A stretch of 64,000 nt of DNA, from NCBI GenBank assembly GCA_026985075.1, contig JALSQX010000020.1:158966-222965 (forward strand), in the 5' to 3' direction. The DNA is from Blastocatellia bacterium. Its GTDB lineage: Bacteria; Acidobacteriota; Blastocatellia; HR10; J050. The position numbers were made by a program, and so were the translations under genes. The notes beneath the pieces were generated by a model. The model saw only the letters and a program-made list of their open reading frames with translations, was not told where the DNA came from and did not search any database. Shown piece after piece: positions 29,137 to 48,616 of this stretch (its first letter is position 1; every line of letters begins with the position of its first letter).

Positions 29137-29625
29137 TCATGATGTCGCCGCCGGAGCGGCCCGGGCGGCTTCGAAGATCCGGGTCAGAAATTCTTTGGTG
29201 ATTTGAGCAATGTGCCATTGAACGCGCGCTCGCGTATTACCGAGCTGCTGCTGGCGCACGTCCGGTTTAATGCCTCGCTCCTCTATGAACGCTTGGAAAT
29301 GGGGAATGATATACTCATCCTGTTCCTGCAACGCCCACTCGTAGATGAACCGCCGAAGCGCCTCGACCTCATCGGATTGACCGAGATGGGACGGCGTCTC
29401 GGGATGTTTCAGGACATGATCGATGATATCGTGACCAAACCGCCGCGTCTCCTCCAACCAGATCTCACAGGCTTCCCAGAGGGGCCCGGGTTGAAGGAGT
29501 CGCCACTGGCCACCGGGAGCATACTTTTTTCTCAACGCCTCTATCCGTTCCTCGGCCCGCTTCCGCCGGTTGGGCGTTTCCGATGCTACGAAAATTCTGG
29601 CCACCTCGACCAATGATGCCGTCAT
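29137..29625 (-). CDS. Hypothetical protein (about 162 aa), operonic between the PCD and Nudix genes
   Basis: The ORF has coding-like composition. The ATG at 29625 follows a GGAG RBS. No recognisable motifs were found. Confidence 0.5.
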   Translation of the reverse strand: MTASLVEVARIFVASETPNRRKRAEERIEALRKKYAPGGQWRLLQPGPLWEACEIWLEETRRFGHDIIDHVLKHPETPSHLGQSDEVEALRRFIYEWALQEQDEYIIPHFQAFIEERGIKPDVRQQQLGNTRARVQWHIAQITKEFLTRIFEAARAAPAATS

Positions 29626-29649: not shown

Positions 29650-29937
29650 TTATGTCTTCCGGAGCCGCTGCTCGATGAGTTGAGCGGCGCGGATGTCTTT
29701 CTCCGTCACGCCTCCTTCGCTGTGCGTCCAAAGAGTGAGCTTCACCCGCCGGTAATGGATTTCGACATCTGGATGATGGTCGAGCAGCTCAGCCAGATGG
29801 GCCACGGCATTGACGAAGAGGATGGCCTCGGGAAAGCTGGCAAACTGAAACTCCTTGCAGAGAGCGCGGTCTACCAATGCCCAGCCTTCCAATGAGGCGA
29901 GCCGTTGCCGGATGTCGTCTTCACTCAATGTGGCCAT
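29650..29937 (-). CDS. Pterin-4a-carbinolamine dehydratase (PCD/DCoH family)
   Basis: The 95-aa protein has the [E]x3HHP motif (LDHHPDVEIHYRRV). The ATG at 29937 follows a GAGGAG RBS. The track ORF is N-extended into the P5CDH gene. Confidence 0.8.
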   Translation of the reverse strand: MATLSEDDIRQRLASLEGWALVDRALCKEFQFASFPEAILFVNAVAHLAELLDHHPDVEIHYRRVKLTLWTHSEGGVTEKDIRAAQLIEQRLRKT

Positions 29938-30034: not shown

Positions 30035-31594
30035 TTAATACTTCTCGGCCACCGCCTTGGCCTGCAGGAAGAGCAACAGATAGTCGCGGCCACCGGCCTT
30101 GGAATCTGTGCCCGAGAGATTGAATCCACCAAATGGATGCACATCCACCAATGCTCCGGTGATTTTGCGATTGAGGTAGAGATTGCCGACGTGAAACTCG
30201 CGTCGCGCGCGCTCCAGATGTTGTCGGTTGCGCGAATAGACGCCACCGGTCAACCCGTACACCGTATTGTTGGCAATGGCCAGAGCCTCGTCGAAATTCC
30301 TGGCGCGAAGGCAAGCGAGCACGGGCCCGAAAATCTCCTCTTGAGAGATGCGCGCCATGGGATCGACGTCGCCGATGACCGTCGGCGCGATGAAATAGCC
30401 CGGTCCCAGTTCCTTCAGGGCATGACCGCCCGTCAACAGTTTGCCTTCTCCCTTGCCGATCTCGATGTAATTCAGGATCGAAGTGTACGCCGATTGGCTC
30501 ACCACCGGTCCCATATATGTCTCGCGATTCTTCGTCGGACCGACCACCAGTTGCTCGGCGCGGGCGACGATTTTCTCCACGGCGCGATCATACACATCGT
30601 CGAGGACAATGGCGCGCGAGCATGCCGAACACTTCTGTCCCGAATACCCGAAGGCCGAGACGACGATCCCCTCGGCGGCGGCCTCCAGATCGGCCGAGCT
30701 ATCCACGATAATAGTATCCTTCCCGCCCATCTCGGCGATCACGCGCTTGATCCAGATCTGTCCCTCTTGCGGGCGGGCGGCCAACTCGTTGATGCGCAAG
30801 CCAACGTCTTTGGAGCCCGTGAACGTGATGAAACGCGTCTTGGGATGGGCGACCAGATAATCGCCTACTTTCGATCCACTGCCCGGCAGGTAATTGATGA
30901 CGCCCGGTGGCAACGAAATTTCTTCCATCAATTCCATGAACTTGGCGGCGATCACCGGACTCTCGCTCGACGGCTTGAGGACCACGGTGTTGCCGGCGGC
31001 GATGGCTCCTGTGGTCATGCCCACCAGGATGGCCAACGGGAAATTCCACGGAGGAATGACGACGCCCGCGCCCAGTGGAATGTAGAACCATTCGTTGTGC
31101 TCATCGGGCAACGGCGATGGCGTGACCGGCCGCGGTCCGGAATAGCGGATGGCTTCGCGCCCGTAAAACTCCATCATGTCAATCGCCTCGGCGACATCGG
31201 CGTCGGCCTCCACCCAGGATTTCCCCACTTCGTAAACCATCCAGGCGGCGAACTCCATCCGACGTCGACGCAGAACGGCCGCCGCATTGAACAGATAGCG
31301 GGCGCGATGTTCGGCGGGCATGCGCCCCCAGGACTGGAAAGCCTCCCAGGCTGCGTCCAAGGCCTTATCGGCCAGTTCCTCATTGGCTCGGTGAACCGAA
31401 CCCACCACTTCATCGGGATTGGAGGGATTGATGGAGTGAAGCAGATCGCCCGTCTCGTATCGCACGCCGCCGATGATGAGCGGATATTGACGACCAAATT
31501 GACGCTCGACCGACGCCAGGGCGTCACTCATAGCGGCGGCGGTCGCTTCATCGGTGAAATCGAGTAACGAAGCATTTTTGAAAGGTGGAACCAT
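30035..31594 (-). CDS. 1-pyrroline-5-carboxylate (L-glutamate gamma-semialdehyde) dehydrogenase, ALDH superfamily
   Basis: The N-terminus (MVPPFKNASLLDFTDE...INPSNP) is typical of RocA/PruA-type P5CDH. The ALDH catalytic Cys (GQKCSACS) and Glu (IAEMGGKD) are present. Confidence 0.85.
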   Translation of the reverse strand: MVPPFKNASLLDFTDEATAAAMSDALASVERQFGRQYPLIIGGVRYETGDLLHSINPSNPDEVVGSVHRANEELADKALDAAWEAFQSWGRMPAEHRARYLFNAAAVLRRRRMEFAAWMVYEVGKSWVEADADVAEAIDMMEFYGREAIRYSGPRPVTPSPLPDEHNEWFYIPLGAGVVIPPWNFPLAILVGMTTGAIAAGNTVVLKPSSESPVIAAKFMELMEEISLPPGVINYLPGSGSKVGDYLVAHPKTRFITFTGSKDVGLRINELAARPQEGQIWIKRVIAEMGGKDTIIVDSSADLEAAAEGIVVSAFGYSGQKCSACSRAIVLDDVYDRAVEKIVARAEQLVVGPTKNRETYMGPVVSQSAYTSILNYIEIGKGEGKLLTGGHALKELGPGYFIAPTVIGDVDPMARISQEEIFGPVLACLRARNFDEALAIANNTVYGLTGGVYSRNRQHLERARREFHVGNLYLNRKITGALVDVHPFGGFNLSGTDSKAGGRDYLLLFLQAKAVAEKY

Positions 31595-31737: not shown

Positions 31738-32334
31738 TCATTGTTTCGCTGGCGAGTAATACGGGTTGGTGCCCGCGGCGTGATCGGTCGTATCCAGGAT
31801 CTCGCCGACGTGTGGGATATGCCTCCGAATGAGCTCTTCGACGCCCTGCTTGAGGGTGACATTGGCCATTCCACATCCCTGGCACCCACCGCCCATGCGC
31901 AAATAAACGTTATTATCGATGACGTCGAGAAGCTCGATATATCCGCCATGCATGGCCACGGCGGGATTGATCTCCATATCCAGGAGTTCCTGAACTTTCT
32001 TGCGGATCTCTTCGGATGAGGGCGTGCGCGCCTTGAAATCTTCGGACACCGGCGATACGCCAGATTGCAGCACGCGACGGATGGCCGCGCCAATTTGCTT
32101 GGCCACCGGTAACCAGTCTTCGAAGTCCTCCTTGGTGACCGTCACCAGATGCTTGGAAATCAACACCGAGGTCACGTTGGGGATCTCGAAGATCGCTTCG
32201 GCCAGCGGAGAGCCTTGGGCTTCCTCCTTGCTCCCGAAGTAGGCTGCGCCATCGTAAACGACGCGATCGACGGTGAATCGACATTTAGTGGGATCGGCTT
32301 GAACCTCGGCCGTGATTTTGATTTCCTGTTCCAT
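31738..32334 (-). CDS. nfuA: NifU/Nfu-family Fe-S cluster scaffold/carrier (N-terminal scaffold-like domain + C-terminal Nfu CxxC domain)
   Basis: The C-terminal half (ELLDMEINPAVAMHGGYIELL ... GGGCQGCGMA) is a NifU_C domain. The symbol is given by domain analogy only. Confidence 0.75.
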   Translation of the reverse strand: MEQEIKITAEVQADPTKCRFTVDRVVYDGAAYFGSKEEAQGSPLAEAIFEIPNVTSVLISKHLVTVTKEDFEDWLPVAKQIGAAIRRVLQSGVSPVSEDFKARTPSSEEIRKKVQELLDMEINPAVAMHGGYIELLDVIDNNVYLRMGGGCQGCGMANVTLKQGVEELIRRHIPHVGEILDTTDHAAGTNPYYSPAKQ

Positions 32335-32537
32335 AGTTCCTCTCCTTATTCATCCGGGAAGCGCCAGAGGCATCCCGGGATGGGGTTTCTCTCATCCTCG
32401 CTGTCGGATGAGACCACTCGCGCTTCAGAGTTTCACCCGCCCATCGTTCAAACGAGATGGTATCACATTTTTCTTCTCGATTCCTAGCCTGTGATGTCAG
32501 CTCGCACAGGACCGAACTGGTCCTCGGTCGGCTCCGC

Positions 32538-34043
32538 TCAGCAAAACCACGGCTCGGTCACCCAGGGCGGCCGCTCCGCTCGATCGAGCCGCGGCGGTGG
32601 CGTCAATGTCGGTGACTCCCCGTCGCGCATTTCATAGGCCAACTGGCGGAGGCGATGGAAGGTCCGCGCCGGGTCTTCATGCGCGCGGCTGGCGTGCTCA
32701 ACTAAAGCACTCACCCGCCGATGAAGCTCATCCATACGCCGATCGGGATGAGCCCACCGATAGGTGAAATGGGTTTCATCGAGCGATTCCAGAAACGGGT
32801 GTATCTCCGCTCGCCCGAGGAGCGCCGACCCCGGCGGGATGAGAAGCCGGATCGTATATTGGACGGGGTCCACGTGATACACCAGCCCTTCCGAGTGAAC
32901 GAACTCCAGGATGTCAATATAATCATCCAACGTCGCCCATGGCGTGAACGGAATCCAGGTTGGACGCCAGGCTATCCCCGCTCGACGAACGAGATCGAGC
33001 GCCGCATAGACGTCCGCTCGGGTATGCCCCTTGTTGAGATTGGTCAATACCACATCGCTGAGCGATTCCACCGCCGAAATGATGAACAGGCATCCCAACT
33101 CGGCCAGTTCGAAGAGGATCTTGTGGCGCGCCAGCAGATGCTCGATCTTCGCCGTGAAATCGAACGTCACCTCGGGGAACGCTCGATGCATGGCGCGGAC
33201 CACGCGAAGCGCATGGCCCGGACCGTTCAAGAAATCGGGATCGCCGAACGTGATATGCTGAGCTCCCGCCGCCACCAACTGGCGGATATCTTCGAGGACG
33301 ATTTCGGGAGGAACGACGAAGAACCGCCCCCCATACACCGGTGGGATGGGACAGTGGACGCAATGATGAAGACAGCCCCGACTGGCTTCGACATAGCCGA
33401 CGAGTCGACGCGCCCCCCCGACCTCCACATGAGCATACCGGGACAGCGGCGGAAGCCCCTCTCGGTAGGGCACGGCGAAGGGAAGCCGCCGAAGGACCGG
33501 TTCCTTCTTACGTCCCGGGAAACTGACGCCGGGGACATCCAGAGAGTGTGGAGAATGCCGGGAGGAGTCTCGGGCCTCGTCCTCTCGTTGCCGCCGCAGA
33601 GCGTCGACCAACGCCACGAAGGGTTCCTCGAACTCCCCACCAATCACCGAGTCGGCGATGTGACTGAGCAAGTAGTCGGCATTGAGCTGAGCATAAAGAC
33701 CCAAAAAGCAGATATGACAGGTGGGATTGATCCGACGAATACGTTGAGCGACGGAAACGCCCAACCGCAATGCCGTATGCATGGGCACCGAGATGCCTAC
33801 AACCCGGGCGCGCGCCGCTTTCTGAGCGTCGAACGGCTCAACGGCGATGTCCATAGTCTCACAGGCATAGCCCGCCCGGCGCAGAAATCCACAGACCGAG
33901 GCGATGCTGAAAGGCTGATGGCCGAGATCATAACAGGAGATCAGAAGGATTGACGCTCGATGGGCAATACCATGAGCGGACATACAGTTGTGGTGGTTCA
34001 TGATCTTCTCCACATCGAGCGGGATTAACAACCGGGGAAACAC
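32538..34043 (-). CDS. B12-binding-domain radical SAM enzyme (class B rSAM), unknown substrate
   Basis: An N-terminal B12-binding-like Rossmann region is followed by the radical-SAM motif CLHHCVHC (Cx3Cx2C). The 3' end overlaps the ferritin-like gene by 19 nt. Confidence 0.75.
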   Translation of the reverse strand: MFPRLLIPLDVEKIMNHHNCMSAHGIAHRASILLISCYDLGHQPFSIASVCGFLRRAGYACETMDIAVEPFDAQKAARARVVGISVPMHTALRLGVSVAQRIRRINPTCHICFLGLYAQLNADYLLSHIADSVIGGEFEEPFVALVDALRRQREDEARDSSRHSPHSLDVPGVSFPGRKKEPVLRRLPFAVPYREGLPPLSRYAHVEVGGARRLVGYVEASRGCLHHCVHCPIPPVYGGRFFVVPPEIVLEDIRQLVAAGAQHITFGDPDFLNGPGHALRVVRAMHRAFPEVTFDFTAKIEHLLARHKILFELAELGCLFIISAVESLSDVVLTNLNKGHTRADVYAALDLVRRAGIAWRPTWIPFTPWATLDDYIDILEFVHSEGLVYHVDPVQYTIRLLIPPGSALLGRAEIHPFLESLDETHFTYRWAHPDRRMDELHRRVSALVEHASRAHEDPARTFHRLRQLAYEMRDGESPTLTPPPRLDRAERPPWVTEPWFC

Positions 34044-34678
34044 CGGGTGCCGAGTCTCTCGGCGGTATGCTGGCGCACGGTCGCCGCCAGCTCGATGGTT
34101 CTGGCGGCCGCTTCCCGCGCCATCTGCTGGGCTTCCGCCGTCGTCGCATACGTGGTCAATAACTCTCGTCCTCTCCGGTGATGCCGCCGTTCCTCGGGCT
34201 GGATGACCCGCCGATAGAGATCGACGGTCTCCCGATCGCCCAACTCCTCACAGTACCGTATGAACGTTTCGTTGACCTGATAGGCCAACAATTCCAATGT
34301 GAATTGACCGGCAGCGATCCGCTCTATTGGCGCGCGCAGCGATTTCAAGTAGGCGAACAGAGGATTCTCGTCCGGCGGAGTGAACGCATCGAGCGCGAAT
34401 CCCAAGGCCGTGAGCCGGTCGGCCACTAACCGGAAGTGCTTGGCTTCATCACCGGCTTGCTCGGCCAACGCGATTTTGATATCCCATTCCCCCGTGGATG
34501 GCATCCAGATGGCGGCCAGTTCGCTGACGCTGATCTCATTGGCCAACGCCAGCTGGAGAAGCTGAGAGATATCGGCGCTGCGGGCAGCGCTTTCGCCGAG
34601 CGCGGTCACCTCGCCCCATTGAGCGAGACGCGCGCGAACGAACGCCTCTAGTTCCTCAACGAATGCGCGACTCTCCAT
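34025..34678 (-). CDS. Ferritin-like di-iron carboxylate protein (two E...ExxH motifs), unknown function
   Basis: The helical protein is 217 aa. It carries E..DEAKH and E...EERRHH motifs spaced as in di-iron oxygenases/hydroxylases. It is translationally coupled to the rSAM gene. Confidence 0.55.
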   Translation of the reverse strand: MESRAFVEELEAFVRARLAQWGEVTALGESAARSADISQLLQLALANEISVSELAAIWMPSTGEWDIKIALAEQAGDEAKHFRLVADRLTALGFALDAFTPPDENPLFAYLKSLRAPIERIAAGQFTLELLAYQVNETFIRYCEELGDRETVDLYRRVIQPEERRHHRRGRELLTTYATTAEAQQMAREAAARTIELAATVRQHTAERLGTRCFPGC

Positions 34679-34741: not shown

Positions 34742-35050
34742 TCACTCAACCTTTCCCAGCGAACCCCATTTGGCTTGAAATTCCTCGGCCGATAACTGAT
34801 ACCAGTCAGCGTTCTTGGGGATGAACTCCTGCCACTGTTCGGGAACCTCGTCTTCGGCGAAGATCGCCTCGACGGGACAGGCCGGTTCGCACGCCGCGCA
34901 ATCAATGCACGTCTCCGGATCAATATACAGTTGCTCCACGTCCTCGAAATGCGCTTCCTCCTTTGTCGGATGAATGCAATCAACCGGGCAGACATCCACG
35001 CAGGCGGTATCCTTCGTCCCAATGCACGGCTCGACGATGATATACGCCAT
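34742..35050 (-). CDS. fdxA: 7Fe-type (3Fe-4S/4Fe-4S) ferredoxin, FdxA-like
   Basis: The protein begins MAYIIVEPCIGTKDTACVDVCPVDCIHP and has a second cluster CIDCAACEPACPVEAIF. The ATG at 35050 follows a GGAGG RBS. The track ORF is N-extended. Confidence 0.8.
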   Translation of the reverse strand: MAYIIVEPCIGTKDTACVDVCPVDCIHPTKEEAHFEDVEQLYIDPETCIDCAACEPACPVEAIFAEDEVPEQWQEFIPKNADWYQLSAEEFQAKWGSLGKVE

Positions 35051-35124
35051 AGTGATCCTCCTCTCTCCAGTGAATCTCGCGCGGGAGCATAGCAGAGCGA
35101 CGCCTCCCGAGTTCCCGTTCCGCC

Positions 35125-35490
35125 TCACGCGGGCGCGTCAAGGGCCTCGGTCATCGACGCCCTCTGACACTGATCACAGGGACAGAGTTTCCGCAACGTC
35201 TGAAAGCTGTAGATTCCCGTCCCATGACCGTCGCTCCAGGTGAACTGCAGCGCATACTGGCCGACGAGTTCTGCGCTCAACATCTTCAGGTCGACGGGAA
35301 CGGCATCCGGCGACAACCGCTTCTCGCCCGTCCACTCATCGATGCAAGACGCGCAAGGGCAATGTTGGCGGAGATAACGCGCCGGATACGTGCTCACATG
35401 ACCATCACCCCAGGCGATCTCCAGTGCGGCGTCACCTCTCTTCTTGATGCTGACGGGCGTAGCGATATTGTGGTCTGAGGGGATCGTCAT
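35125..35490 (-). CDS. DUF971 domain protein (duplicated CPCAxC motif; Fe-S assembly-associated)
   Basis: The motif is duplicated: YLRQHCPCASC and LRKLCPCDQC. Confidence 0.7.
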   Translation of the reverse strand: MTIPSDHNIATPVSIKKRGDAALEIAWGDGHVSTYPARYLRQHCPCASCIDEWTGEKRLSPDAVPVDLKMLSAELVGQYALQFTWSDGHGTGIYSFQTLRKLCPCDQCQRASMTEALDAPA

Positions 35491-35542: not shown

Positions 35543-36643
35543 TCACGCCGGCACCTCTTCGATGTGAAGCGGCGGGCGCTGGTAGTTTTGAATGCTGATC
35601 TGGGCCGCTAGATTACCCAAGATCTGCTGATAAGCCTTCGCTGACGGGGAATCCGGGTCGGCGATGATAATAGGAGTGCCTTCGTCCGCGCGAATTCTGA
35701 TGCCGATGTCAATGGGGATCTCGCCGAGGAAGGGAATGCCGAGCTCTTCGCTGGCCTTGGCCGCGCCGCCCGAACCGAAGATATCCTCCCGCGCGCCACA
35801 ATGAGAACAGATATGATAGCTCATGTTCTCGATGATGCCTAAAATGGCGACATTGGTCTGCTGAAACATCCGCAGCGTCTTCATGGAGATTTTCCACCCT
35901 ACGTCCTGTGGCGTGGAGACGATCACTCCGCCCGTGACGGGCACGGACTGGACCAGCGTCAGGTGAACATCGCCCGTCCCCGGCGGCAAGTCAACGATGA
36001 GATAATCCAACTCTCCCCAGTCAACCTGGAACAAACACTGCGAAAGAGCCTTATGAGCCATCGGGCCCCGCCAGATGAGCGGCTTCTCGCTGGGCACGAA
36101 TAACCCCATGGAGACGAAGCGCACGCCGTACTTCTCCACCGGGATGATGCGATTGTCACGCAGTTCGGCCTGTTCATGTACGCCCAGCATGATGGGGATA
36201 CTGGGACCGTAAATGTCGGCATCCAGCAATCCCACGCGAGCGCCCGTCCGGGCCAATCCGACAGCGAGGTTCGTCGCCACTGTAGATTTCCCCACTCCGC
36301 CCTTTCCACTGCCTACGGCCACGATGTTTCGCACGCTGGCCAAGGCCGATTTATCGAGACCGGCATGCTGGCGCACCTCAGCCTTCATATTGATGTGCAC
36401 CTCGCTGACCCCGGCCAATGCCATCACGGCCCTCCTGGCCTCGTCCCGCAGCTTCTCTTTCACCGGACAGGCGGGCGTCGTCAGATTAATATCGAAACTG
36501 ACCACCGAACCGTCGATCTTGAGATTGTCGATGAAATTCAGCGAGACGAGATCGCGATGTAAGTCGGGATCCTTCACCCCGCGCAACGCCCTCAAGACAT
36601 CGGCCTCGGTCACCCGTTGGCGATCATCGGTTGGCGAATTCAT
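35543..36643 (-). CDS. apbC: Mrp/NBP35/ApbC-family Fe-S cluster carrier ATPase with N-terminal DUF59 domain
   Basis: A DUF59 domain (VLRALRGVKDPDLHRDLV) is followed by a deviant Walker A (GSGKGGVGKST) and CSHCGARE (CxxC). The ATG at 36643 follows an AAGGAG RBS. Confidence 0.85.
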   Translation of the reverse strand: MNSPTDDRQRVTEADVLRALRGVKDPDLHRDLVSLNFIDNLKIDGSVVSFDINLTTPACPVKEKLRDEARRAVMALAGVSEVHINMKAEVRQHAGLDKSALASVRNIVAVGSGKGGVGKSTVATNLAVGLARTGARVGLLDADIYGPSIPIMLGVHEQAELRDNRIIPVEKYGVRFVSMGLFVPSEKPLIWRGPMAHKALSQCLFQVDWGELDYLIVDLPPGTGDVHLTLVQSVPVTGGVIVSTPQDVGWKISMKTLRMFQQTNVAILGIIENMSYHICSHCGAREDIFGSGGAAKASEELGIPFLGEIPIDIGIRIRADEGTPIIIADPDSPSAKAYQQILGNLAAQISIQNYQRPPLHIEEVPA

Positions 36644-36789
36644 ACTCTCTCCTTCGGGTCGGACGCGCCCATTCCCCGTAGAAGCCGCTCGGCGCGCGCC
36701 CATTGGCGTGGGTGACGCTCCGCTCGCGGAGGGACGACCCCACAAGAGGCACCCCTCCTATTCCCGTCCCGTGCGAGGGCGACGCGCCA

Positions 36790-37125
36790 TCACACCGAAA
36801 AGCTGCTTCCACAGCCACAGCTCCCCGTGGCGTTGGGATTCTTGAAGGTGAAGCCGGATCCCATGATGGAATTCACATAATCCAGCTCGACGCCATTCAG
36901 AAACCGCTTACTCATCGGATCGACGAAAATCCGAATCCCATTGGCCTCGATGATCTCATCATCTTCATTGGGCGTTTCATCGATCACCATGTCGTATTGA
37001 AATCCCGAACATCCACCGGGAATGACTCGAATGCGCAGCCCCGCTTCCGGATTCACGTTCTCCGAGGCGAAGAATTGCTTGATCGCATCAGCCGCTGTGT
37101 CGGTCACGGTTAAGTTCAAGCTCAT
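36790..37125 (-). CDS. erpA: A-type Fe-S cluster insertion/carrier protein (HesB/IscA/ErpA family)
   Basis: The protein is 111 aa and has three conserved Cys (GGCSGF ... SCGCGSSF). Confidence 0.85.
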   Translation of the reverse strand: MSLNLTVTDTAADAIKQFFASENVNPEAGLRIRVIPGGCSGFQYDMVIDETPNEDDEIIEANGIRIFVDPMSKRFLNGVELDYVNSIMGSGFTFKNPNATGSCGCGSSFSV

Positions 37126-37255: not shown

Positions 37256-37285
37256 ATTATAACAGACCGGTCCTCTATTTTTCAA
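37256..37285 (-). promoter_or_regulatory. Consensus sigma70-type promoter driving the erpA-apbC Fe-S island, followed by a structured leader of about 120 nt
   Basis: On the minus strand: -35 TTGAAA (37280..37285), an exact 17-bp spacer, -10 TATAAT within TTATAAT (37256..37262). It lies in an AT-rich patch within otherwise GC-rich DNA. The leader contains an imperfect 12-bp inverted repeat (CGAACCGCCGCC / GGTGGCGGTTGTCG) before the AGGAGG RBS. Confidence 0.45.
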
Positions 37286-37413: not shown

Positions 37414-39834
37414 CTATTCTTCGTTTTCGTCCGACTCACCTTCCTCCTTCCTCTCCAATTGTTCGGCCAATTCTCTGAGGCGACGATCTACAAGATAATT
37501 CAATGTGTCCGGTTCGAACTGGCCGTCGTCGCCGCGCTGGCCAGCTTTCAGACCGGTGAGGAGTTCGGCCGCTTCATCGACGGTCCGCACCGGATAGATA
37601 TGGAACTGTCGATTTCGAATGGCCTCGATGACTTCTTTTTTCAACATCAAATTGGTCACATTCTGATGAGGGATGATGACGCCATGCTCGCCGTTGAGGC
37701 CGTGCGCCTTGCACACATAGTAGAATCCCTCGATCTTCTGGTTGACGCCTCCCACCGGTTGGACCTCCCCTTTTTGATTGATAGAGCCGGTGACAGCCAG
37801 ATTTTGCTTCACGGGCACGCCGGCCAGGCTGGACATCAAGGCGACGACTTCGGCCACCGAGGCGCTATCTCCTTCGACCATCTCATACGTTTGTTCGAAT
37901 CCCAGGCTGGCCGCCAAGGTGAGCGGTTTATCCTGAGCGAACTTGGCGCCCAGGTATCCACTCAAAATCATCACGGCCTTGTTATGGATGTTCCCGCTCA
38001 ACTTGGCCCGTCGCTCGATATTGATCACCCCGGTTCGACCGGCGAACGTCTGGCAGGTGATGCGCACCGGCTTGCCAAACTCATAGTCTCCCAGGTTGAT
38101 CACCGAGAGGCCATTGACCTGACCGACGACGGCCCCATGGGTATCCACCAGGATGAAGCCCCGGGCGATCATTTCCTGGATGCGCTCTTCGACCCGGTTG
38201 GAGCGGTAGATCTTCTCCTCGATGGCTCGCTCTACGTCCTCGCGACGCACAATCTCGCTTTGACGACGGGAGGCCCAGTAACTGGCCTCGGTCATGATAT
38301 CGGCGATCTCGCCGAATCGGGTGGAGAGCTTCTTTTGATCTTCGGCCAACCGCGAGCCATACTCCACCAGGGCGGCGATGCCGCTCCGATCGAAGGGCTT
38401 GAGGTGATCGCGAGCGCAGCAGGCGTTGACGAACTGGGCGTATTGTCGTTCATTCTCCGGCGTGCGATCCATCTGGGAATCAAAATCCGCTTTGACCTTG
38501 AACAGCTTCTGGAAATCCTCGTCCAACAGGTAGAGGAGATGATAGAGAAGAGGATTGCCAATGAGGATCACTTTCACCTGGACCTTGATCGGCTCGGGTC
38601 GCAGGCCGGTCGCACTGATGATCCCATATTGAACGCCGACGTCCTCGATGCGGACTTCCTGATTTTCGATGGCCCGTTTGAGCGTATCCCACACGTATGG
38701 ATATTTGAACAGGTCGGCAGCCTCGACGATCAGGTATCCCCCGTTAGCGCGGACCAGGGATCCAGCCTTGACCATGGTGAAGTTGGTGACCAAGGCGCCA
38801 AAATGCACTTCACGCTCGATCGCCCCGAACAAGTTCATATAAGTGGGATTCGACTCGATGATCACTGGTGCGCCTTTGGTATTGGAGTGATCGACGAGGA
38901 CGTTCACCCGATATTCGACGAAGCGGGACTTCTCGTCCACCATGCGCAACGCTTTGGGGATGGGAGGGCCCTCCTCCTCCTTTCGGCGAAAGTCGGTGAT
39001 ATTCTCCAAGACGTGCTCCTGGACCTCGTTCAGATAGCGGACGATATTCTCATGGGCGGCATATTTTCGCCGATGGTAGGCAAACAGGCTCTGGACGGCG
39101 ATGGCCGCCGTTTGTTTCTCCAGCTCTTTGATTCTCTGCCGCGTCTCCCGCTCGGCTTCCCTGACCAAGTCCATCATCTCGGAGACCTTTTTGTTGAACT
39201 TCTCGATCCGGTAGCGGATGGCCTCCTTCTCCTCATCGGAGAGGGCTTCGTACTGTTCTTGAGAGAGCGGCTTGCCATCTTCGCTGACCACCTGCGTGAT
39301 GATCCCCGCTGGCGTGACCTGGAGGTGAATGCCTTCTTGCCGAGCCTCCCGCTGAATCTGCGAGAACAGTTCCGCCGTCTTCTGCTGATAGGCGCGCAAG
39401 ATGTCCGCCTGCTGCTGTTCATATCGTTTGCTCTCGAACATGCGGGGGATTTCCTGGCGCAAACTCTCGATCAGTTCCTCCATATCCTTCTGCAGTTGTC
39501 GCCCCAGCCCCGGCTGAAGATAGAGGACGCGCGGTTCATCGGGAGCCTGAAAGTTGTTGACCAGACAGATATCGGGCGGGGTCGGTTTCTGTTCGGCCAG
39601 GCGCGTCAATGTCGATTGGATAAGGGTGGTGCGTCCCGTACCCGGCGGTCCAGCCAGGAACAGATTATATCCGCGCGAAGTGATATCCAGTCCAAACCGA
39701 ATGGCCGTCGCCGCCCGCTTCTGACCGATGATGCCCTCGGGTAGAGACAATTCGGCGGTGGTCTCGAAGTCGAATTGATCGGGATCACAGGCGCGATATA
39801 CCTCTTCGGGCGAAAGTTCTCGATGCTCTGGCAT
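37414..39834 (-). CDS. Lon-like AAA+ protease homologue (LonC/YcbZ-type) with a Walker A Lys-to-Arg substitution and an intact Ser-Lys protease dyad
   Basis: The P-loop is GPPGTGRTT (R replaces the conserved K). A long coiled-coil insertion is present. The C-terminal S16 Lon protease domain is intact (GDSAS ... GGVNQK). The ATG at 39834 follows a GGAGAGGA RBS. The track begins at an upstream GTG. Confidence 0.75.
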   Translation of the reverse strand: MPEHRELSPEEVYRACDPDQFDFETTAELSLPEGIIGQKRAATAIRFGLDITSRGYNLFLAGPPGTGRTTLIQSTLTRLAEQKPTPPDICLVNNFQAPDEPRVLYLQPGLGRQLQKDMEELIESLRQEIPRMFESKRYEQQQADILRAYQQKTAELFSQIQREARQEGIHLQVTPAGIITQVVSEDGKPLSQEQYEALSDEEKEAIRYRIEKFNKKVSEMMDLVREAERETRQRIKELEKQTAAIAVQSLFAYHRRKYAAHENIVRYLNEVQEHVLENITDFRRKEEEGPPIPKALRMVDEKSRFVEYRVNVLVDHSNTKGAPVIIESNPTYMNLFGAIEREVHFGALVTNFTMVKAGSLVRANGGYLIVEAADLFKYPYVWDTLKRAIENQEVRIEDVGVQYGIISATGLRPEPIKVQVKVILIGNPLLYHLLYLLDEDFQKLFKVKADFDSQMDRTPENERQYAQFVNACCARDHLKPFDRSGIAALVEYGSRLAEDQKKLSTRFGEIADIMTEASYWASRRQSEIVRREDVERAIEEKIYRSNRVEERIQEMIARGFILVDTHGAVVGQVNGLSVINLGDYEFGKPVRITCQTFAGRTGVINIERRAKLSGNIHNKAVMILSGYLGAKFAQDKPLTLAASLGFEQTYEMVEGDSASVAEVVALMSSLAGVPVKQNLAVTGSINQKGEVQPVGGVNQKIEGFYYVCKAHGLNGEHGVIIPHQNVTNLMLKKEVIEAIRNRQFHIYPVRTVDEAAELLTGLKAGQRGDDGQFEPDTLNYLVDRRLRELAEQLERKEEGESDENEE

Positions 39835-40096
39835 TGTTTTCCTCTCCATAGAATCGTCCATTCTCTGAGCTGCCGGTATATTGTTCACATTCCCGGCGAC
39901 CGATTCAAGCGCTGGAATCAAAATTGGGTGTGCTTCAAGACAGCCGGTCGAATCTCTTCCAACTCCGCATCCCACGCCACGTCCCGGTCAATAGGGAACC
40001 GTACCGTCTCGTCGGTGTCTAATGTGTAAGGCATGCCATGGCTGACCCGAGCTACGGCCCAGTGCGACCTGTTCAGGGCTCATCGGCGGAGAGGAG

Positions 40097-40963: not shown

Positions 40964-41284
40964 TCACGGCATAATCATGGACGTCCACCCCGAAGGAAGC
41001 GGACTCCAGCCCCGGGTGAAGAAATCGCTCAACGTCAACGCCAGAAGAATGGCCAGCCAGAAAAATCCCGATCCCACGAACACCCAGACCAGTCGGCTGC
41101 TATACTTCACGTGCATGAAGTAGAGAATGACAATGGTAGCCTTGGTGACCGCAATGGCGAGGGCCACGTAGAGATTCAACAACCCCAGATCGTAAAAGGC
41201 GACGTCGACGGTGACCAGGGTGAGGAGAATCAAGGTCGCGAACACCAGGAGATAGATCTTTTGTGGAACGACGTGATGCGCCAT
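40964..41284 (-). CDS. Cytochrome c oxidase subunit IV (bacterial CoxD/CtaF family)
   Basis: The 106-aa protein has three TM helices. It sits directly downstream of subunit III. Confidence 0.7.
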   Translation of the reverse strand: MAHHVVPQKIYLLVFATLILLTLVTVDVAFYDLGLLNLYVALAIAVTKATIVILYFMHVKYSSRLVWVFVGSGFFWLAILLALTLSDFFTRGWSPLPSGWTSMIMP

Positions 41285-41288
41285 GGGA

Positions 41289-41951
41289 TTAACTCCGACT
41301 GATTAAGTAGAGCAACGGGAAGAGGAAGATCCACACGATATCGACAAAGTGCCAGTAGAGGCCGGCGACTTCCACCGGATTATAGTATTCGGATGAAAAC
41401 CGCCCGCGCCAGGCCAGCACCACGAGCACGGCTAATACGCTGACGCCGATGATCATGTGAAGGGCATGCATGCCCGTCATGGCGAAATAGAAAGAGAGGA
41501 ACACATAGAGTTGCTGTGGATCGACGTGAAAGCGAATGAACTCATGAGGCGGAACGAAATTGATCCCGGGAATCAAGTGCTCGTGATATTTATGGGAATA
41601 CTCAAACACCTTGATTCCCAGAAACACCGATCCCAGCAGCATAGTCAACAACAAGAATCCGATGAGCGATCGGCGGCGACCCAACTGGGCGCTGCGGACG
41701 GCCAGAGCCATCGTCAGACTGCTACAGATCAACACGGCCGTATTGATGGCGCCAATGCGGTAATCCAGATGGAGACTGCCTTCGGCGAACGCCAACGGGT
41801 ACTGAGAGCGATACACCGCATAGCCGGTGAATAACCCACCAAAGAACAGAACCTCAGTGATCAAAAACGCCCACATGCCCAGCGTGGACGCTTCGAACTG
41901 CTGTTCCAGATCGTCAAACTGGTGCGCTAAGACCGAGTGCGTTTCAGACAA
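41289..41951 (-). CDS. Cytochrome c oxidase subunit III
   Basis: It is a multi-helix membrane protein of the COX3 family, overlapping coxA by 8 bp. Confidence 0.85.
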
Positions 41952-43602
41952 CTTCTGCCTCCTCCGGATAAGGTTTCGATGCGTAGGCGTAGGCCTCTTC
42001 GGTCACTACCGGCGTCCTCTCGAAGTTATGAGGCGGTGGCGGCGAGGGCGTCGTCCACTCCAATCCCTTCGCCTGCCAGGGATTGGCGCCGGCCAGAGGT
42101 CCATACTTCAGCGACCAGAGCAAATAGATGAACGGGATGATATAGCCGACGGCCAGAATGGATGCGCCCGCGGTGGACATCACGTTCAGCACCTGAAATT
42201 CCGGTGGGTACACGTGATAGCGTCGCGGCATGCCCAGATAACCGAGAACGAACTGCGGAAAGAACGTGAGGTTGAACCCGACGAAGATCACCAGGGCAGC
42301 GAACTTAGCCCATCCCTCGGGATAGAGCCGCCCGGTCATCTTCGGCCACCAGAAATGCATGGCGGCCATATATCCCATGATGGCCCCACCAACCATGATG
42401 TAGTGGAAGTGCGCCACGACAAAATAGGTATCGTGCAGGTGAACATCGGTGGCCAGCGTGGCCAGGAACAGTCCGGTCAATCCGCCAATGGTGAACAAGC
42501 CGATGAACCCCAGAGCATAGAGCATGGGCGCCTGATAGGATACGGATCCTTTGTACAGCGTGGCCGTCCAATTGAATACCTTCACCGCCGACGGAATGGC
42601 CACCAGCATGGTCAACACGGAAAAGATCATCCCGGCATAGACGGATTGGCCAGAAGTGAACATGTGATGCCCCCAGACCAGAAATCCGAGAACGGCGATG
42701 GCCAGACTGGAGAAAGCGATGAACGGATACCCGAAAACGCGTTTTCTGGAGAAACAGGCGATCACTTCGCTGATCACCCCCATCGAGGGGAGAATCATAA
42801 TGTACACCGCCGGATGCGAATAGAACCAGAACAGATGCTGAAACAGCAGAGGATCGCCGCCCAATTTGGGATCGAAAATGCCCAGTTTCAGGAGCCGTTC
42901 CAAGGCGACCAGCACGATGGAGATGGCCACCACCGGCGTCCCCAAAATCTGAATGAGGCTGGTCGCATAGTGCGCCCAGACGAATAGCGGCAACCGAAAC
43001 CAGGTCAATCCCGGCGCGCGCATCTTATGGATGGTGACGATGAAGTTGAGCCCGGTCAGGATCGATGAAAATCCCAGAATGAAGACGCCGACGGCGGTGA
43101 GCGCCACGTTGCTGTTGGAGTAAGTGCTGCTGTAGGGAGCATAGAACGTCCAGCCGGTATCCACGCCGCCGAGCGCCATGGCGGCGAACGTGAACACTCC
43201 CCCGATGGAGTAAATGTACCAACTCATCAGATTCAGTCGGGGGAAGGCCACATCCCGAGCACCGATCATCATGGGGATGAGGAAGTTCCCGAACACGGCG
43301 GGGATGGAAGGGATGAGGAAGAAGAAGATCATGGCCACGCCGTGCATGGTGAACAGTTTGTTGTACATCTCTGAGCTCACCACATCCCCCTCCGGGGTCA
43401 TCAATTCCAGGCGAATGAGGGCGGCAAAAATCCCCCCCAGAGCGAAGAAGATGGTGATCGAGATGAGATAGAGAATGCCGATCCGCTTATGATCGGTCGT
43501 CAGCAGCCAGGATTTGAGCCCGTAGTCGACGTTCAAATAGTTCACCGGGGTGGGCTCCCCTGGTGTTCCTGAATGTGCGTTGATCGGTGTGGCGTCCATC
43601 AC
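41944..43602 (-). CDS. Cytochrome c oxidase subunit I (haem-copper oxidase catalytic subunit)
   Basis: It has the COX1 12-TM architecture with conserved His ligands (WAHHMF, HFHYIM). Confidence 0.95.
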
Positions 43603-44552
43603 TGACTCCTTTCCTCTTTGCTGAGTGATTTGAGGTAGGCGATGATTTGCAGGATCCCCCGCTCGCTGATCTGGCCCTGATAGGTGGACATGATCGTGGG
43701 CGAGGGATAGCCAGCGACGATCTTGGCGTTGGGATTCAAAATGGATTCCCGAATGTAGGCTTCGTCGGCGATGACCGTCTCACCACTGAGCAATCTCACC
43801 GGTTTTCCGAACACGCCCACCAATGATGGCCCCCGGCCCGTTCCATCGGCGCGATGACAGGTGTTACACCCGAGCTGATTGAACAATCGCTCGCCCGCCG
43901 CCTCCATCGATTCGCCAACCACGCCACCACTCAGCCACGCCTGATACTCGGCCGGCTCCATCACCGTCACCCATCCCTTCATCTTCGAATGACCGGTCCC
44001 GCAGTATTCGGCGCAGAACAGGTGATAGCGCCCCGTCTTGGTCGCCTGGAACCAGATCGTCGCGTATCGTCCGGGCACCACATCTTTCTTGAGGCGGAAG
44101 GCCGGGATGTAAAAGCTATGGATCACGTCCTCGGAAGCCATGATGAGTTTGATCGGTCGGCCCACGGGAACGTGTAACTCGTTGATCTCCCGCTTCCCAT
44201 TGGTGTGTTGGATGTGCCACATCCACTGCTTCCCCACCACGTATACCTCTTCCGCGTCGGCGGGCACTTCGTTATACTCATCGAAGTAGAGCTTGGCGCC
44301 CCAGGCGAACATGATCATCACCAGCCCCAGGGGAATCACCGACCAGGCGATCTCCAGCGGAGTCGAGCCGTGAATCGACGGCGGGACGTCCGTCTCCGAC
44401 CGACGCCGATATTTGAGGGCGAACACGGTGAGGGAAATGAAGATCAAAGCGGCGAAGAAGACGGCCACGGCGACCAGGAAGAAATAGAGCGCATCGACCT
44501 TCCCGGCCATGGTCGAGGCCGCCTCAGGGAATAGAGGGACTCCTTGCTCCAT
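43599..44552 (-). CDS. Cytochrome c oxidase subunit II with C-terminal cytochrome c domain (caa3-type)
   Basis: The CuA site ([13 protein letters not shown]) and a CNTCH haem-c motif are present. Confidence 0.9.
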
Positions 44553-44634
44553 AAGACCTCAACCTCCACAGACGAAGGGCGGAGCGGCCAGCCAGAGAGG
44601 CTCCCGATCCACTCCGCGATGTAGCTCCGTCCAT

Positions 44635-45555
44635 TCAACCATCTCGATGCTGTGCCGCTCGCTCTTCGATCGGAGCGTTTTTGAATCGCCGATCCCGACG
44701 AAACATGATGACCATGAACGTCCCGAGCAAAACCACCGTGATCAATCCGGCCACCCGTAATACATTCATAATGATGACGCCATACTTTCCCGTGGCCGGG
44801 TCATATTGGCAGCAGTACAGAATCAACTGATCGACCGGCGATCCGATCTGGCCTGCCGAAGCTTCCACTAATCCCAGACGGAGATCTCGGGACGGGTAGT
44901 CGATACCATAAAAGTAACGCGCGATCTTCCCCTCGGCGGTGAGCACCACGATCCCCGCAGCGTGAATGTAGAGATCCTTCTCCGGGTCATAGCGATAATG
45001 AAATCCCACTGCCTGGGTGAGCTGGTCAATGGCCATCTGATCGCCGGTGAGAAAATGCCACCCGGCGGCCGCGCCTGGCCGACCGTAATCCTCGATGTAC
45101 CGTTGTTTCTTCTTGGCCGCCAGAGCGGGCGTCTCGCGAGGATCGAAGCTCACCGTGAGCACAGTGAAATCCTTCCCCACATCCAGAGAGAGCGGCTTCA
45201 AAGCGCGCGCTAATCCGCTGAGCACCATGTTACAGAGCATGGGGCAGCGGTAGTACACCAGAGCCAGGACGACCGGTTTATCGCCGAAGTACTGACGAAG
45301 CGGCACCACCCGTCCCGCTTCATCCCGGAACACGAGATCCAGCGGGATCTGCTCATCCAGCTTCTGGTCGATGCCCACGCCGCGAAACATTCCCGGCATG
45401 TCGTTGGCCGTGAGCCCTTGCGCCCGCACCACTGAGGTGAATCCGAACGGGCCGGAGAGCATCAACCAGAGGGCCGTTACCACCATGCTCAACCCGCCGA
45501 GCCGTCGGTGGCTCTTCACCGGCTGCGTTCGATGAATTCTGAGATCGATATTCAT
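44635..45555 (-). CDS. SCO1/SenC copper chaperone
   Basis: A thioredoxin fold carries CPMLC (CxxxC). Confidence 0.85.
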   Translation of the reverse strand: MNIDLRIHRTQPVKSHRRLGGLSMVVTALWLMLSGPFGFTSVVRAQGLTANDMPGMFRGVGIDQKLDEQIPLDLVFRDEAGRVVPLRQYFGDKPVVLALVYYRCPMLCNMVLSGLARALKPLSLDVGKDFTVLTVSFDPRETPALAAKKKQRYIEDYGRPGAAAGWHFLTGDQMAIDQLTQAVGFHYRYDPEKDLYIHAAGIVVLTAEGKIARYFYGIDYPSRDLRLGLVEASAGQIGSPVDQLILYCCQYDPATGKYGVIIMNVLRVAGLITVVLLGTFMVIMFRRDRRFKNAPIEERAAQHRDG

Positions 45556-45627
45556 AAATCTCCAAGTTTATCTGAACCGAGCCGCGCGAGCAACGTTTGG
45601 GCCGACCGGGCGAGACGTCGGCTCGGT

Positions 45628-46086
45628 TCACCGATCATGATCCGCCCCCCGAGTTCCTGACGAGGAACTCGAATCTGCCGGCGGCTGCGACCTGGCCGGG
45701 AGCCCTCGTTGCAAGATGAGGTCCATAGCCCGATCGATCGGGATATGGACCACGCCCGCTTCCTTATTCACCCAGCCGTAACTATGAAGGACGGTCTCCT
45801 CCCGAGCGCGCAATCGCTCCAGATCCGTCTCCGGCGTCACCTGGAGTCGAGGTTCCGGCGGAAGCGGCCGCTCGATGGTCACCGGGGGAGGCGGCGGCTG
45901 GAGTTTGGCCTCTCGAGCCTCCAGGTAGTCGAACAGCGCCCACATGCCCACCAGCGCCAGGAGGATTAAAACGCCCAGCGAGACGAAGAAGATCACCGCC
46001 GAACGAGGTTGGATGTCGCGCACCTCATGAGCTGGAGATACCGGAGGAGCAGCGTGCCCCTCTCCTGAAGGCTTCGTCTCAGGCAT
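45628..46086 (-). CDS. Small single-TM Pro-rich membrane protein between actF and sco (possible ActG-like or oxidase assembly subunit)
   Basis: The 152-aa protein has one TM helix (VIFFVSLGVLILLALVGMWALF) and PPPPP repeats. It overlaps the actF stop by 8 bp. Confidence 0.45.
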   Translation of the reverse strand: MPETKPSGEGHAAPPVSPAHEVRDIQPRSAVIFFVSLGVLILLALVGMWALFDYLEAREAKLQPPPPPVTIERPLPPEPRLQVTPETDLERLRAREETVLHSYGWVNKEAGVVHIPIDRAMDLILQRGLPARSQPPADSSSSSGTRGADHDR

Positions 46087-47254: not shown

Positions 47255-47268
47255 CGGTGCTCTGTCCG

Positions 47269-47916
47269 TTATTCGTGATTCGTCGTTGGCGATTGATCGC
47301 CGGTGGTCGATCGCGCCCCACTTGATCCTTGCTCTTGGATTCCCGCATCATGCCTCTTGACGGCCGGTGGCGCCAGCAATTTCGCTCGCTCCTCTGGCGG
47401 CACATCGTCGAGCGTAGCATTCTGGCTCAACTGCAACGCCCGAATGTAAGCCACAATCGCCCATCGATCTCGAGGTGGAATGCGCGACGCATAACTGTAC
47501 ATGCGACCGAACCCATTCGTGATCACATCGTAGAAATGCCCCACCGGGGCCTTCTGGAGCCGTTCGATGTGAAAGGAGGGAGGATGCGGGAATCCGCGCT
47601 CGACGATCATCCCTCGACCGCTTCCCGTCCGATCATGACAGACGGCGCAGAAGATATTATAGCGCTCCCGCCCTCGCTCCAGCACCTGGCGAGTGATGGG
47701 AAAAGGAAACGTATCGACCAACTGACCATTCACTTTGCCCGTGTAGAAGTGCTCGTCCAGTCGGAGATGGCCGCGCGCGACCGTCCCTTTGACCAGCGGC
47801 CGGGCCGATCGCCCGTCGGGGAAGAATCGGCTGGCCGCCAGCGGCTTATATCTCGGTTGATCGTGCATATCGAGGCGACAGCCCGACACCAGCACCAGAC
47901 AGAGGCCGACACCCAT
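47269..47916 (-). CDS. actE: Alternative complex III monohaem cytochrome c subunit ActE (predicted lipoprotein)
   Basis: A single CAVCH is present. The ATG at 47916 gives MGVGLCLVLVSGC with a lipobox (LVSGC). The track ORF is N-extended to 48087. Confidence 0.7.
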   Translation of the reverse strand: MGVGLCLVLVSGCRLDMHDQPRYKPLAASRFFPDGRSARPLVKGTVARGHLRLDEHFYTGKVNGQLVDTFPFPITRQVLERGRERYNIFCAVCHDRTGSGRGMIVERGFPHPPSFHIERLQKAPVGHFYDVITNGFGRMYSYASRIPPRDRWAIVAYIRALQLSQNATLDDVPPEERAKLLAPPAVKRHDAGIQEQGSSGARSTTGDQSPTTNHE

Positions 47917-48076
47917 CCCGATCACCACGTTCGTCCACCGTCTCCTCGGCGCCTCGCCTATCGCCTGCGGTCTTTCATCCTTGATGGGACGTTCGCGGCG
48001 CAGGGTCCACGGCCGGCGACCGGCCATCGACCAAAGAGCGCGGACATCGTTCCTGCGACCACCGACGATGTGTCGT

Positions 48077-48613: not shown

Positions 48614-48616
48614 CGT

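Follow-up and report, generated by a model that had tools for sequence, protein, structure and literature searches.

On the minus strand of a 64-kb stretch of DNA from Blastocatellia bacterium (64,000 nucleotides of contig JALSQX010000020.1, here called the window), a gene for a radical S-adenosylmethionine (SAM) enzyme lies among genes for iron-sulfur (Fe-S) carriers, and it is almost certain, as far as the sequence can tell, that its product is a member of the NCBIfam family NF040546, "CUAEP/CCAEP-tail radical SAM (seleno)protein", in which the in-frame UGA at 32538-32540 is recoded to selenocysteine (Sec). Taken as an open reading frame (ORF) ending at this TGA, the protein scored 667.4 bits against the NF040546 model (cutoff 500), and reading the frame through, with Cys in place of U, raised the score to 689.9 bits and model coverage from 457 to 467 of 468 positions (1-467). 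The TGA is preceded by a Cys codon, and the frame past it reads C-U-AEPTEDQFGPVRADITG up to a TAG at 32484-32486, with the conserved tail ...PRLTEPWF-Cys-Sec-AEPT. NF040546 is a named, functionally uncharacterised family, and the window protein itself differs from it in nothing, being a full-length match above the cutoff that shares both the C-U-A-E-P tail and the alternation of Sec and Cys. An earlier annotation of this DNA made from the letters alone (the first-pass annotation) had ended the gene at 32538, so that the recoded UGA and the hairpin downstream of it were missed.

The in-frame UGA and the hairpin downstream of it

In a species-level genome collection, the codon following the conserved WFC was TGA in 57 of 77 homologous loci and TGC or TGT in the other 20, and the frame after this codon, AEPT[EQRK]xQ..., was conserved in nearly all of the 77 loci. 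Natural CCAEP forms occur, for example, in the Nitrospira or Nitrospirales loci L023 and L080. Among the nearest 120 homologue protein clusters, 102 stop after ...WFC and 17 continue as WFCCAEPT..., which indicates that public annotations end the radical SAM gene too early; since these 102 clusters, the RefSeq entry of Thermomicrobium roseum included, end at the Sec codon, the presumably catalytic Cys-Sec tail is missing from the databases. A stop codon that directly follows a Cys codon and has a conserved frame downstream should prompt a check for a selenoprotein. The T. roseum gene, a Sec-type member in a cultured organism, is found on the megaplasmid of strain DSM 5159 (locus L163, NC_011961.1) at 7941-9440, where the annotated protein WP_012643191 of locus TRD_RS12835 ends at ...SWFC and the sequence runs on as TGA-AEPLEDPSGPVASQVRMVDQPLR. 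Its neighbours encode an aminotransferase dependent on pyridoxal 5'-phosphate (PLP), an MFS transporter and a large GNAT protein.

Downstream of the UGA, a hairpin was found in the window with the stem 17-22/28-33 (counted from the U of UGA) and the apical loop A-G-U-U-C, and the same hairpin is present in the minimum free energy fold of the window sequence. Across the loci, positions 16/17-22 pair with 28-33/34 around a loop AGUUN, in which G24 is invariant and U25 nearly so. Compensatory changes were seen in 5 of the 7 pairs; double-change cells numbered 33 against 12.9 in column shuffles, a value reached in none of 500 shuffles, and slid registers were 21-57% paired as compared with 84% in the true register. 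This hairpin goes together with the UGA, as core pairing amounted to 5.47 of 6 positions in TGA loci versus 2.89 of 6 in loci with a Cys codon. A covarying hairpin linked in this way to a UGA is the signature expected of a bacterial selenocysteine insertion sequence (SECIS), and recoding of the UGA to Sec would proceed with the help of this predicted element, 16-34 nt downstream. That the TGA is instead a real stop, the protein ending at ...PWFC and the downstream conservation arising by coincidence, is hardly credible: public gene calls do end at the TGA and no Sec machinery is visible in the window, yet the same AEPT... continuation follows a Cys codon in the 20 homologues, nearly all TGA loci keep the downstream frame open and conserved, the covarying hairpin is specific to TGA, and the read-through tail adds 22 bits to the NF040546 score.

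A full-text literature search for "CUAEP" returned only a 2022 preprint for the NF040546 family, in which the family is mentioned once, as "uncharacterized" and with the rare CU motif, and in which CU dyads are associated with heavy-metal and organometallic systems (Haft 2022, bioRxiv 10.1101/2022.07.06.499078). In the parts of a 2026 review of prokaryotic selenoproteins that were available, radical SAM selenoproteins appear only under other models, TIGR04167 and TrsS (NF045646).

The beginning of the gene also had to be revised. The first-pass annotation had taken the longest ORF, 501 aa at 32538-34043, which is indeed present on the minus strand, and had derived from it a 19-nt overlap, and hence translational coupling, with an upstream gene for a 217-aa ferritin-like protein, whose ORF is likewise present (34025-34678, minus strand). 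This overlap needs an improbable GTG start at 34043, a codon that is a by-product of the conserved Cys-Phe codons in the tail of the ferritin-like gene, and the NF040546 model aligns only from residue 32 of the 501-aa ORF. Gene callers begin the protein with the ATG at 34001, which is preceded by GGAG at a distance of 7 nt and gives 487 aa up to the TGA, and from this start the two genes are separated by a gap of 23 nt, as compared with 41 nt in an 82%-identical relative (L161).

Relation to ArsL and the proposed chemistry

In the radical SAM protein, a Rossmann/B12-binding-like domain at the N-terminus is followed by a CxxxCxxC core and, at the C-terminus, by the tail ...PWFC-U-AEPTEDQFGPVRADITG. 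The core motif reads CLHHCVHC, and the ORF passes both Pfam Radical_SAM (51.6 bits) and the B12-binding family PF02310 (38.5 bits, cutoff 32.1), in agreement with the Cx3Cx2C motif after a B12-binding-like domain that had been noted before. The first-pass label of a B12-radical-SAM enzyme thus holds for the type of domain, but the methylation or cyclisation that it implied is unlikely. Against the NCBIfam models of class B enzymes the window protein scored 24-48 bits, with cutoffs of 360-650, and it is far below the model cutoffs of the cobalamin-dependent enzymes TsrM, MgmA/QCMT, TokK, OxsB, BchE and HpnR. The second-best NCBIfam model was that of ArsL (NF040542, RCCLKC-tail), matched with 331.9 bits over model positions 1-411 of 423. 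Identity to ArsL-family proteins is about 36-38%, and in tblastn comparisons it is 36% to plasmid-encoded RCCLKC-tail proteins over about 85% of the protein. NF040546 is a sister family of ArsL, its nearest characterised relative, and the two have in common a Rossmann-like N-terminal domain, a CxxxCxxC core and a C-terminal domain that ends in a Cys-rich tail.

In arsinothricin biosynthesis, ArsL cleaves SAM to 5'-methylthioadenosine and a 3-amino-3-carboxypropyl (ACP) radical and transfers the ACP group to As(III), forming a C-As bond on arsenite that is held by three C-terminal cysteines; removal or mutation of the tail abolishes activity, and the product is a free amino acid. Because NF040546 is a sister family of ArsL, and ArsL homologues and AprD4 are reported in a 2026 review not to bind cobalamin, it is unlikely that the radical SAM enzyme is a cobalamin-dependent methylase or cyclase, and by the same comparison it is probably ArsL-like and cobalamin-independent. 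A natural CCAEP homologue (P0135) was modelled and showed a Rossmann-like N-terminal domain and a partial TIM barrel, with AprD4 as the best structural match. A sequence search of the PDB returned no structure of ArsL or of a CUAEP protein, the best matches being MgmA (9ccb, 33 bits) and AprD4 (23 bits).

From this homology we infer, as the best-supported mechanism, an ArsL-like reaction in which a Cys-Sec dyad replaces the CCxxC tail. Going by ArsL, the N-terminal Rossmann-like domain would make no use of cobalamin, and the [4Fe-4S] cluster held by CxxxCxxC would cleave SAM reductively, probably at the C-gamma-S bond, to give the ACP radical. The flexible Cys-Sec tail, standing in for the arsenite-binding tail of ArsL, would then present a soft heteroatom (a metalloid, or S or Se) for formation of a C-X bond. 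We propose this ACP-radical and heteroatom chemistry only tentatively. Another explanation leaves the identity of the protein unchanged and assigns it canonical chemistry, in which a 5'-deoxyadenosyl radical abstracts hydrogen from an amino-acid or peptide substrate and the Cys-Sec pair acts as a hydrogen-atom donor or a redox pair. The CxxxCxxC motif and the partial TIM barrel conform to the canonical type, no exception with such a fold other than ArsL has been described so far, and the identity to ArsL is modest; yet the homology extends over nearly the whole ArsL model, an essential Cys-rich tail lies at the equivalent position in ArsL, and the association of CU dyads with heavy-metal and organometallic systems also speaks against canonical chemistry, which we therefore regard as unlikely.

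An auxiliary Fe-S cluster in the N-terminal domain, with Nfu (encoded directly downstream of the radical SAM gene) as its repair factor in the manner of LipA, was considered and rejected. C23, C95, C98 and C304 are invariant among close homologues, and because they are not conserved in T. roseum, in the distant member L109 or in ArsL, an auxiliary cluster is unlikely. In an alignment of the window protein, a CCAEP homologue, the T. roseum member, L109 and B. cereus ArsL, the only universal cysteines were those of the radical SAM motif and the tail Cys.

ArsL-family genes stand among arsR, ACR3, arsC, MIP and GNAT genes, plus an ATP-grasp gene, and ars genes are absent near NF040546 genes, which have Nfu, DUF169 and L-amino-acid-ligase (LAL) genes as neighbours instead. 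On the Bacillus cereus plasmid pAH820_272 (L164, 447-11218), for example, an RCCLKC-tail gene is accompanied by genes for ArsR, an MIP channel, a GNAT protein, ACR3 and ArsC, and the ATP-grasp gene near the B. cereus ArsL-family gene parallels the LAL link of the CUAEP family. NF040546 occurs very widely among phyla of soil, groundwater and marine habitats, and its only characterised relative carries out a rare radical ACP transfer to a metalloid. The question of interest is what a Cys-Sec-tailed homologue of ArsL does and why it is found with Nfu, and it can be asked in T. roseum.

Conserved neighbours of the radical SAM and ferritin-like genes

When one genome per species was scanned, at least 549 genomes proved to carry a relative of the radical SAM gene, drawn from Acidobacteriota, Rokubacteria, Methylomirabilota, Nitrospirota, Planctomycetota, Poribacteria, Gemmatimonadota, Bacteroidota/Ignavibacteria and others, and the neighbours were counted in the best 80 loci. 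A gene for Nfu adjoins the radical SAM gene on the same strand in 37 of the 80 loci, in many phyla; erpA is present in 9, and apbC, DUF971 and fdx in 2 each. When neighbouring ORFs were clustered without bias, the recurrent groups were Nfu (36 loci), an ATP-grasp protein (33-37 loci), DUF169 (23-28 loci) and, in Planctomycetota, a PLP-dependent decarboxylase of the ornithine/diaminopimelate (Orn/DAP) type. The ATP-grasp neighbour carries the LAL domains PF13535, PF18603 and PF18130, and it lies within 4 kb of the radical SAM gene in 24 of 49 loci. Of the 69 loci with sufficient flanking sequence, 56 have Nfu or DUF169 immediately next to the radical SAM gene. The usual gene orders are LAL-rSAM-Nfu, rSAM-Nfu-LAL, rSAM-DUF169-LAL and ErpA-Nfu-rSAM (rSAM, radical SAM), and a Fuerstiella locus reads ApbC-DUF971-rSAM-Nfu-DUF169-LAL. 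DUF971 was also found directly upstream of the radical SAM gene in L039 and in L108 and L109.

In Nitrospirota and Planctomycetota (e.g. L008, 3154-3861; L030; L047), a Cys-rich DUF169 gene stands directly downstream of the radical SAM gene, the position taken by Nfu in other phyla, and this shared position suggests that the roles of DUF169 and Nfu are interchangeable. In nine Planctomycetota loci (L019, L030, L047, L048, L052, L053, L056, L076 and L078), a conserved 160-aa protein with no Pfam match and the Orn/DAP-type decarboxylase follow rSAM-DUF169. The literature searched on DUF455 and DUF169 held no functional study of either, only mentions in passing; those of DUF169 place it close to HgcA-like genes of Nitrospina and on a list of co-occurrences with YedE.

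These neighbourhoods make a functional link between the radical SAM enzyme and Nfu likely. NfuA, in its work with LipA or MiaB, is an Fe-S carrier that re-supplies the cluster of a radical SAM enzyme, and the present case resembles it in that the genes of an Nfu-type carrier and a radical SAM enzyme are linked. It differs in that NF040546 has no conserved auxiliary-cluster cysteines, and therefore any repair would concern the radical SAM cluster itself. On the evidence of gene order, Nfu would supply or repair this cluster, with the Cys-rich DUF169 at the same position elsewhere, and the amino-acid product would pass, in about half of the genomes, to the ATP-grasp enzyme of the LAL type. The first-pass annotation had described the genes as inserted into an Fe-S biogenesis island; since Nfu is the most conserved neighbour of the radical SAM gene, this gene is not an insertion there.

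A further explanation also starts from these Fe-S links and makes the radical SAM selenoprotein a factor of Fe-S biogenesis or repair, with the Cys-Sec tail serving as a selenenylsulfide (compare GCUG of thioredoxin reductase) or as an S/Se relay on the clusters of Nfu, ErpA or ApbC, and with no small molecule involved. Its ties to Nfu, ErpA, ApbC with DUF971 and ferredoxin recur in several phyla, the gene lies inside a carrier operon in the window, and the Cys-rich DUF169 takes the position of Nfu. We nevertheless judge this role to be distinctly improbable: the frequent links to LAL-type ATP-grasp enzymes, to an MFS transporter and, in Planctomycetes, to the Orn/DAP-type decarboxylase are usual in small-molecule pathways, the nearest homologue that has been characterised produces a free amino acid, and there is no extra conserved Cys for an auxiliary cluster.

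Our preferred explanation, an ArsL-like selenoenzyme served by Nfu, can be extended to a module that has so far gone unrecognised, composed of the radical SAM protein with its Cys-Sec tail, Nfu or DUF169, and LAL. In this module, the enzyme would join the aminocarboxypropyl group of SAM, through a carbon-heteroatom bond (C-Se, C-S or C-metalloid), to a substrate held in place by Sec, a dedicated Fe-S carrier would load its cluster, and the resulting unusual amino acid would be converted to a dipeptide; the acidobacterial version would sit in an Fe-S carrier operon, paired with a Cys-tailed di-iron oxidase. This full scheme is speculative, and we consider it doubtful in all its parts together. 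The links to Nfu/DUF169 and to the amino-acid ligase lead to concrete hypotheses for a second instance of radical SAM chemistry outside the canonical type, and for the part that selenium would play in it.

The protein encoded directly upstream of the radical SAM gene in the window belongs to the ferritin-like di-iron-carboxylate superfamily, having the ligand pattern E...ExxH...E...ExxH on a four-helix core. In an alignment of 19 sequences the metal ligands E48, E78-x-x-H81, E129 and E163-x-x-H166 were invariant, and the motifs DEAKH and EERRHH, which the first-pass annotation had picked out, contain E78/H81 and E163/H166. The match to DUF455 (PF04305) was weak, 36.0 bits against a gathering threshold of 34.3, and covered only profile positions 100-210 of 247. 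No NCBIfam model matched, no Pfam or NCBIfam match to MiaE or Coq7 was obtained at E <= 0.01, and a PDB search with the ferritin-like profile returned nothing significant. At the level of sequence the protein falls in none of the characterised families of ferritin-like or heme-oxygenase-like di-iron oxidases (Dps-like PA4880, CADD, HrmI, BesC, UndA and the MiaE-like ADO), and its C-terminal G-T-x-C-[FL]-P-G-C tail is unique to its family as compared with these. This tail (34025-34060 in the window) was present at the extreme C-terminus in 19 of 19 aligned homologues, and the C-x-P-G-C may act as a redox shuttle or a metal ligand. The homologues are 52-82% identical, and many are annotated as coming from metagenome-assembled genomes of Acidobacteriota/Terriglobia. 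Two conserved tails thus stand side by side in the window, the Cys tail of the ferritin-like protein and the Cys-Sec tail of the radical SAM protein. The earlier placement of both proteins in their superfamilies was correct, and neither has a known substrate. Comparison with profile models, which it had proposed, bore out the view that neither belongs to a characterised family, with the reservation that the radical SAM protein does fall in the named family NF040546.

The ferritin-like gene was not found in any of the 80 radical SAM loci. Conversely, in 80 metagenomic loci that carry the ferritin-like family, a radical SAM gene was the immediate downstream neighbour in none of the 66 loci that had room for it and was present at all in just 2 of the 80 (L108 and L109). 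The neighbours that recurred around the ferritin-like gene were a SagB-like nitroreductase-fold protein (15 of 80) and pterin-4a-carbinolamine dehydratase (PCD; 8 of 80: L103, L107, L108, L109, L115, L122, L125 and L153), and a PCD homologue also closes the gene string of the window. Adjacency of ferritin-like and radical SAM genes is kept only in L161 and, with LAL between them, in L108/L109. The synteny examination suggested in the first-pass annotation therefore gives a divided answer: the radical SAM gene does travel with Fe-S genes, at the frequencies given above, but the conserved pair that had been postulated is largely contradicted by the counts.

The version in L109 is the richest of the module, and apart from the window lineage only L108/L109 bring the ferritin-like gene and a radical SAM gene together. 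On one strand, L109 (1296-9046) carries genes for SufU-like, Nfu, 2-oxoglutarate-oxygenase-like, Rieske, YggX, FNR, DUF971, CCAEP radical SAM, LAL, ferritin-like and PCD proteins, most of these names being read from ORF translations. The L109 radical SAM protein has a CCAEP tail and is 40% identical to that of the window, and the L109 ferritin-like protein is 55% identical and ends in ...CLPGC. Because the window lineage and L108/L109 both link the two genes, the ferritin-like gene is best read from gene order as having joined the radical SAM module at least twice, outside its core. In our preferred explanation, the ferritin-like protein would be a lineage-specific addition and not an obligate partner of the radical SAM enzyme, and may oxidise its product or act through a redox-active tail.

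The reading proposed in the first-pass annotation was an obligate, translationally coupled pathway, in which a ferritin-like di-iron oxygenase and a cobalamin-dependent class B radical SAM enzyme carry out an aerobic and an anaerobic step on one substrate, as in the modification of a cofactor or a tRNA, with Fe-S carriers delivered on site. The two genes are adjacent and co-directional in the window and in L161, the Pfam B12-binding match is above its cutoff, DUF971, radical SAM, LAL, ferritin-like and PCD genes stand in one string in the distant L108/L109, and both proteins have conserved C-terminal Cys or Sec tails. Such a pathway is nonetheless very unlikely, given the near absence of each gene from the loci of the other, the SagB-like and PCD genes as the usual neighbours of the ferritin-like gene, the improbable start codon behind the overlap, the reported lack of cobalamin in ArsL-clade enzymes and the absence of a MiaE or Coq7 match.

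Taken as a whole, the explanation that we favour, with a Sec-containing ArsL-like enzyme tied to Nfu and the ferritin-like protein as an addition, is reasonably probable, and the following observations weigh against it. With respect to ArsL, the score is below the model cutoff of 450, the tail is WFC-U-AEP and not RCCLKC (CCxxC), offering two chalcogen ligands versus three, and the contexts of NF040546 genes, unlike those of ArsL, are not arsenic operons; for these three reasons, the substrate and the regiochemistry of SAM cleavage are extrapolated. With respect to the neighbours, the adjacency of Nfu could reflect shared regulation only, and a search of the 64-kb window for LAL, DUF169 and SagB-like genes found none, the absence of LAL and DUF169 being the part that counts here. 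In L108/L109, the ferritin-like gene does lie close to a distantly related CCAEP radical SAM gene, with LAL, DUF971 and PCD also present, and given these two loci there may be a real functional link between the ferritin-like protein and the radical SAM enzyme. With respect to Sec, an Rfam search around the UGA gave chance-level hits only and no match to a SECIS family, no tRNA was found in the 64-kb window, and selA, selB, selC and selD were not found among the window ORFs scanned, which represent a partial annotation of the 64 kb.

The gene string and the rest of the window

The genes around the radical SAM gene, all on the minus strand, are in the order erpA-apbC-DUF971-fdxA-(ferritin-like)-(radical SAM)-nfu-ALDH-PCD (ALDH, aldehyde dehydrogenase), so that the Fe-S carrier genes reported by the first-pass annotation on both sides, erpA, apbC, DUF971 and fdxA upstream and nfu downstream, are in place (Table 1). 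As compared with NF040546 genes elsewhere, this neighbourhood is a variant: the radical SAM gene lies inside the erpA-apbC-DUF971-fdxA...nfu string with the ferritin-like gene upstream, and LAL and DUF169 are lacking. In L161, ALDH follows nfu in the same order, and a Pterin_4a gene at the equivalent position closes the gene string there too. The FdxA-type ferredoxin is a possible electron donor.

Table 1. Coordinates of the genes and sequence elements of the Fe-S carrier gene string, with the adjoining protease gene.
Feature	Position	Strand	Basis or remark
LonC-like protease	37414-39975	minus	
Promoter-like site TTGAAA-18-TATAAT, TG extended	37256-37285	minus	upstream of erpA; consensus scan, 11/12 matches
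ErpA / A-type Fe-S carrier	36790-37125	minus	NF010147, 124 bits (cutoff 117)
ApbC/Mrp Fe-S carrier ATPase	35543-36745	minus	PF10609, 330.8 bits, and PF01883; 366 aa per gene callers
DUF971 / GBBH-like_N protein	35125-35490	minus	PF06155, 98.6 bits
FdxA-type ferredoxin	34742-35128	minus	Pfam Fer4 families; NCBIfam FdxA models below cutoffs; 102 aa per gene callers
Ferritin-like di-iron-carboxylate protein, 217 aa	34025-34678	minus	weakly DUF455; invariant C-terminal G-T-x-C-[FL]-P-G-C tail
CUAEP-tail radical SAM selenoprotein (predicted), 505 aa incl. Sec488	32484-34001	minus	NF040546
In-frame UGA, predicted to be read as Sec (Cys-Sec dyad)	32538-32540	minus	TGA/Cys codon alternation among homologous loci
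bSECIS-like hairpin	32507-32525	minus	nt 16-34 after the U of UGA; covariation
Nfu (Nfu_N and NifU C-terminal domain), Fe-S carrier	31738-32334	minus	Pfam matches
Aldehyde dehydrogenase	30035-31594	minus	PF00171, 486.6 bits; downstream of nfu
PCD homologue	29650-29937	minus	matches PCD of L109
Terminator-like hairpin	29597-29613	minus	3' of the PCD homologue

In a pattern scan, the site upstream of erpA was the only strong promoter-like site on the minus strand, and the hairpin after the PCD homologue was the only terminator-like site on that strand. Both are pattern matches, consistent with one long transcript from erpA to PCD, and the promoter-like site may mark the start of the operon.

The remaining genes of the window are those of aerobic respiration and housekeeping. 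An aerobic respiratory cluster (40964-53270, minus strand) includes an Fe-S (ActB-like) subunit, an NrfD-like subunit, SCO1 and COX2 with a cytochrome c domain, and the COX1, COX3 and COX4 ORFs within it were placed by their match to the equivalent genes of L161. Since the window holds these genes for aerobic respiration (the alternative-complex-III-like cluster, cytochrome oxidase and SCO1), the host of this O2-sensitive radical SAM enzyme is probably an aerobe. At 14867-18478, also on the minus strand, a 1203-aa ORF encodes a highly hydrophobic protein that resembles a polytopic membrane protein and has no Pfam match; the strong AT skew (0.335) seen at 16-18 kb is due to this ORF.

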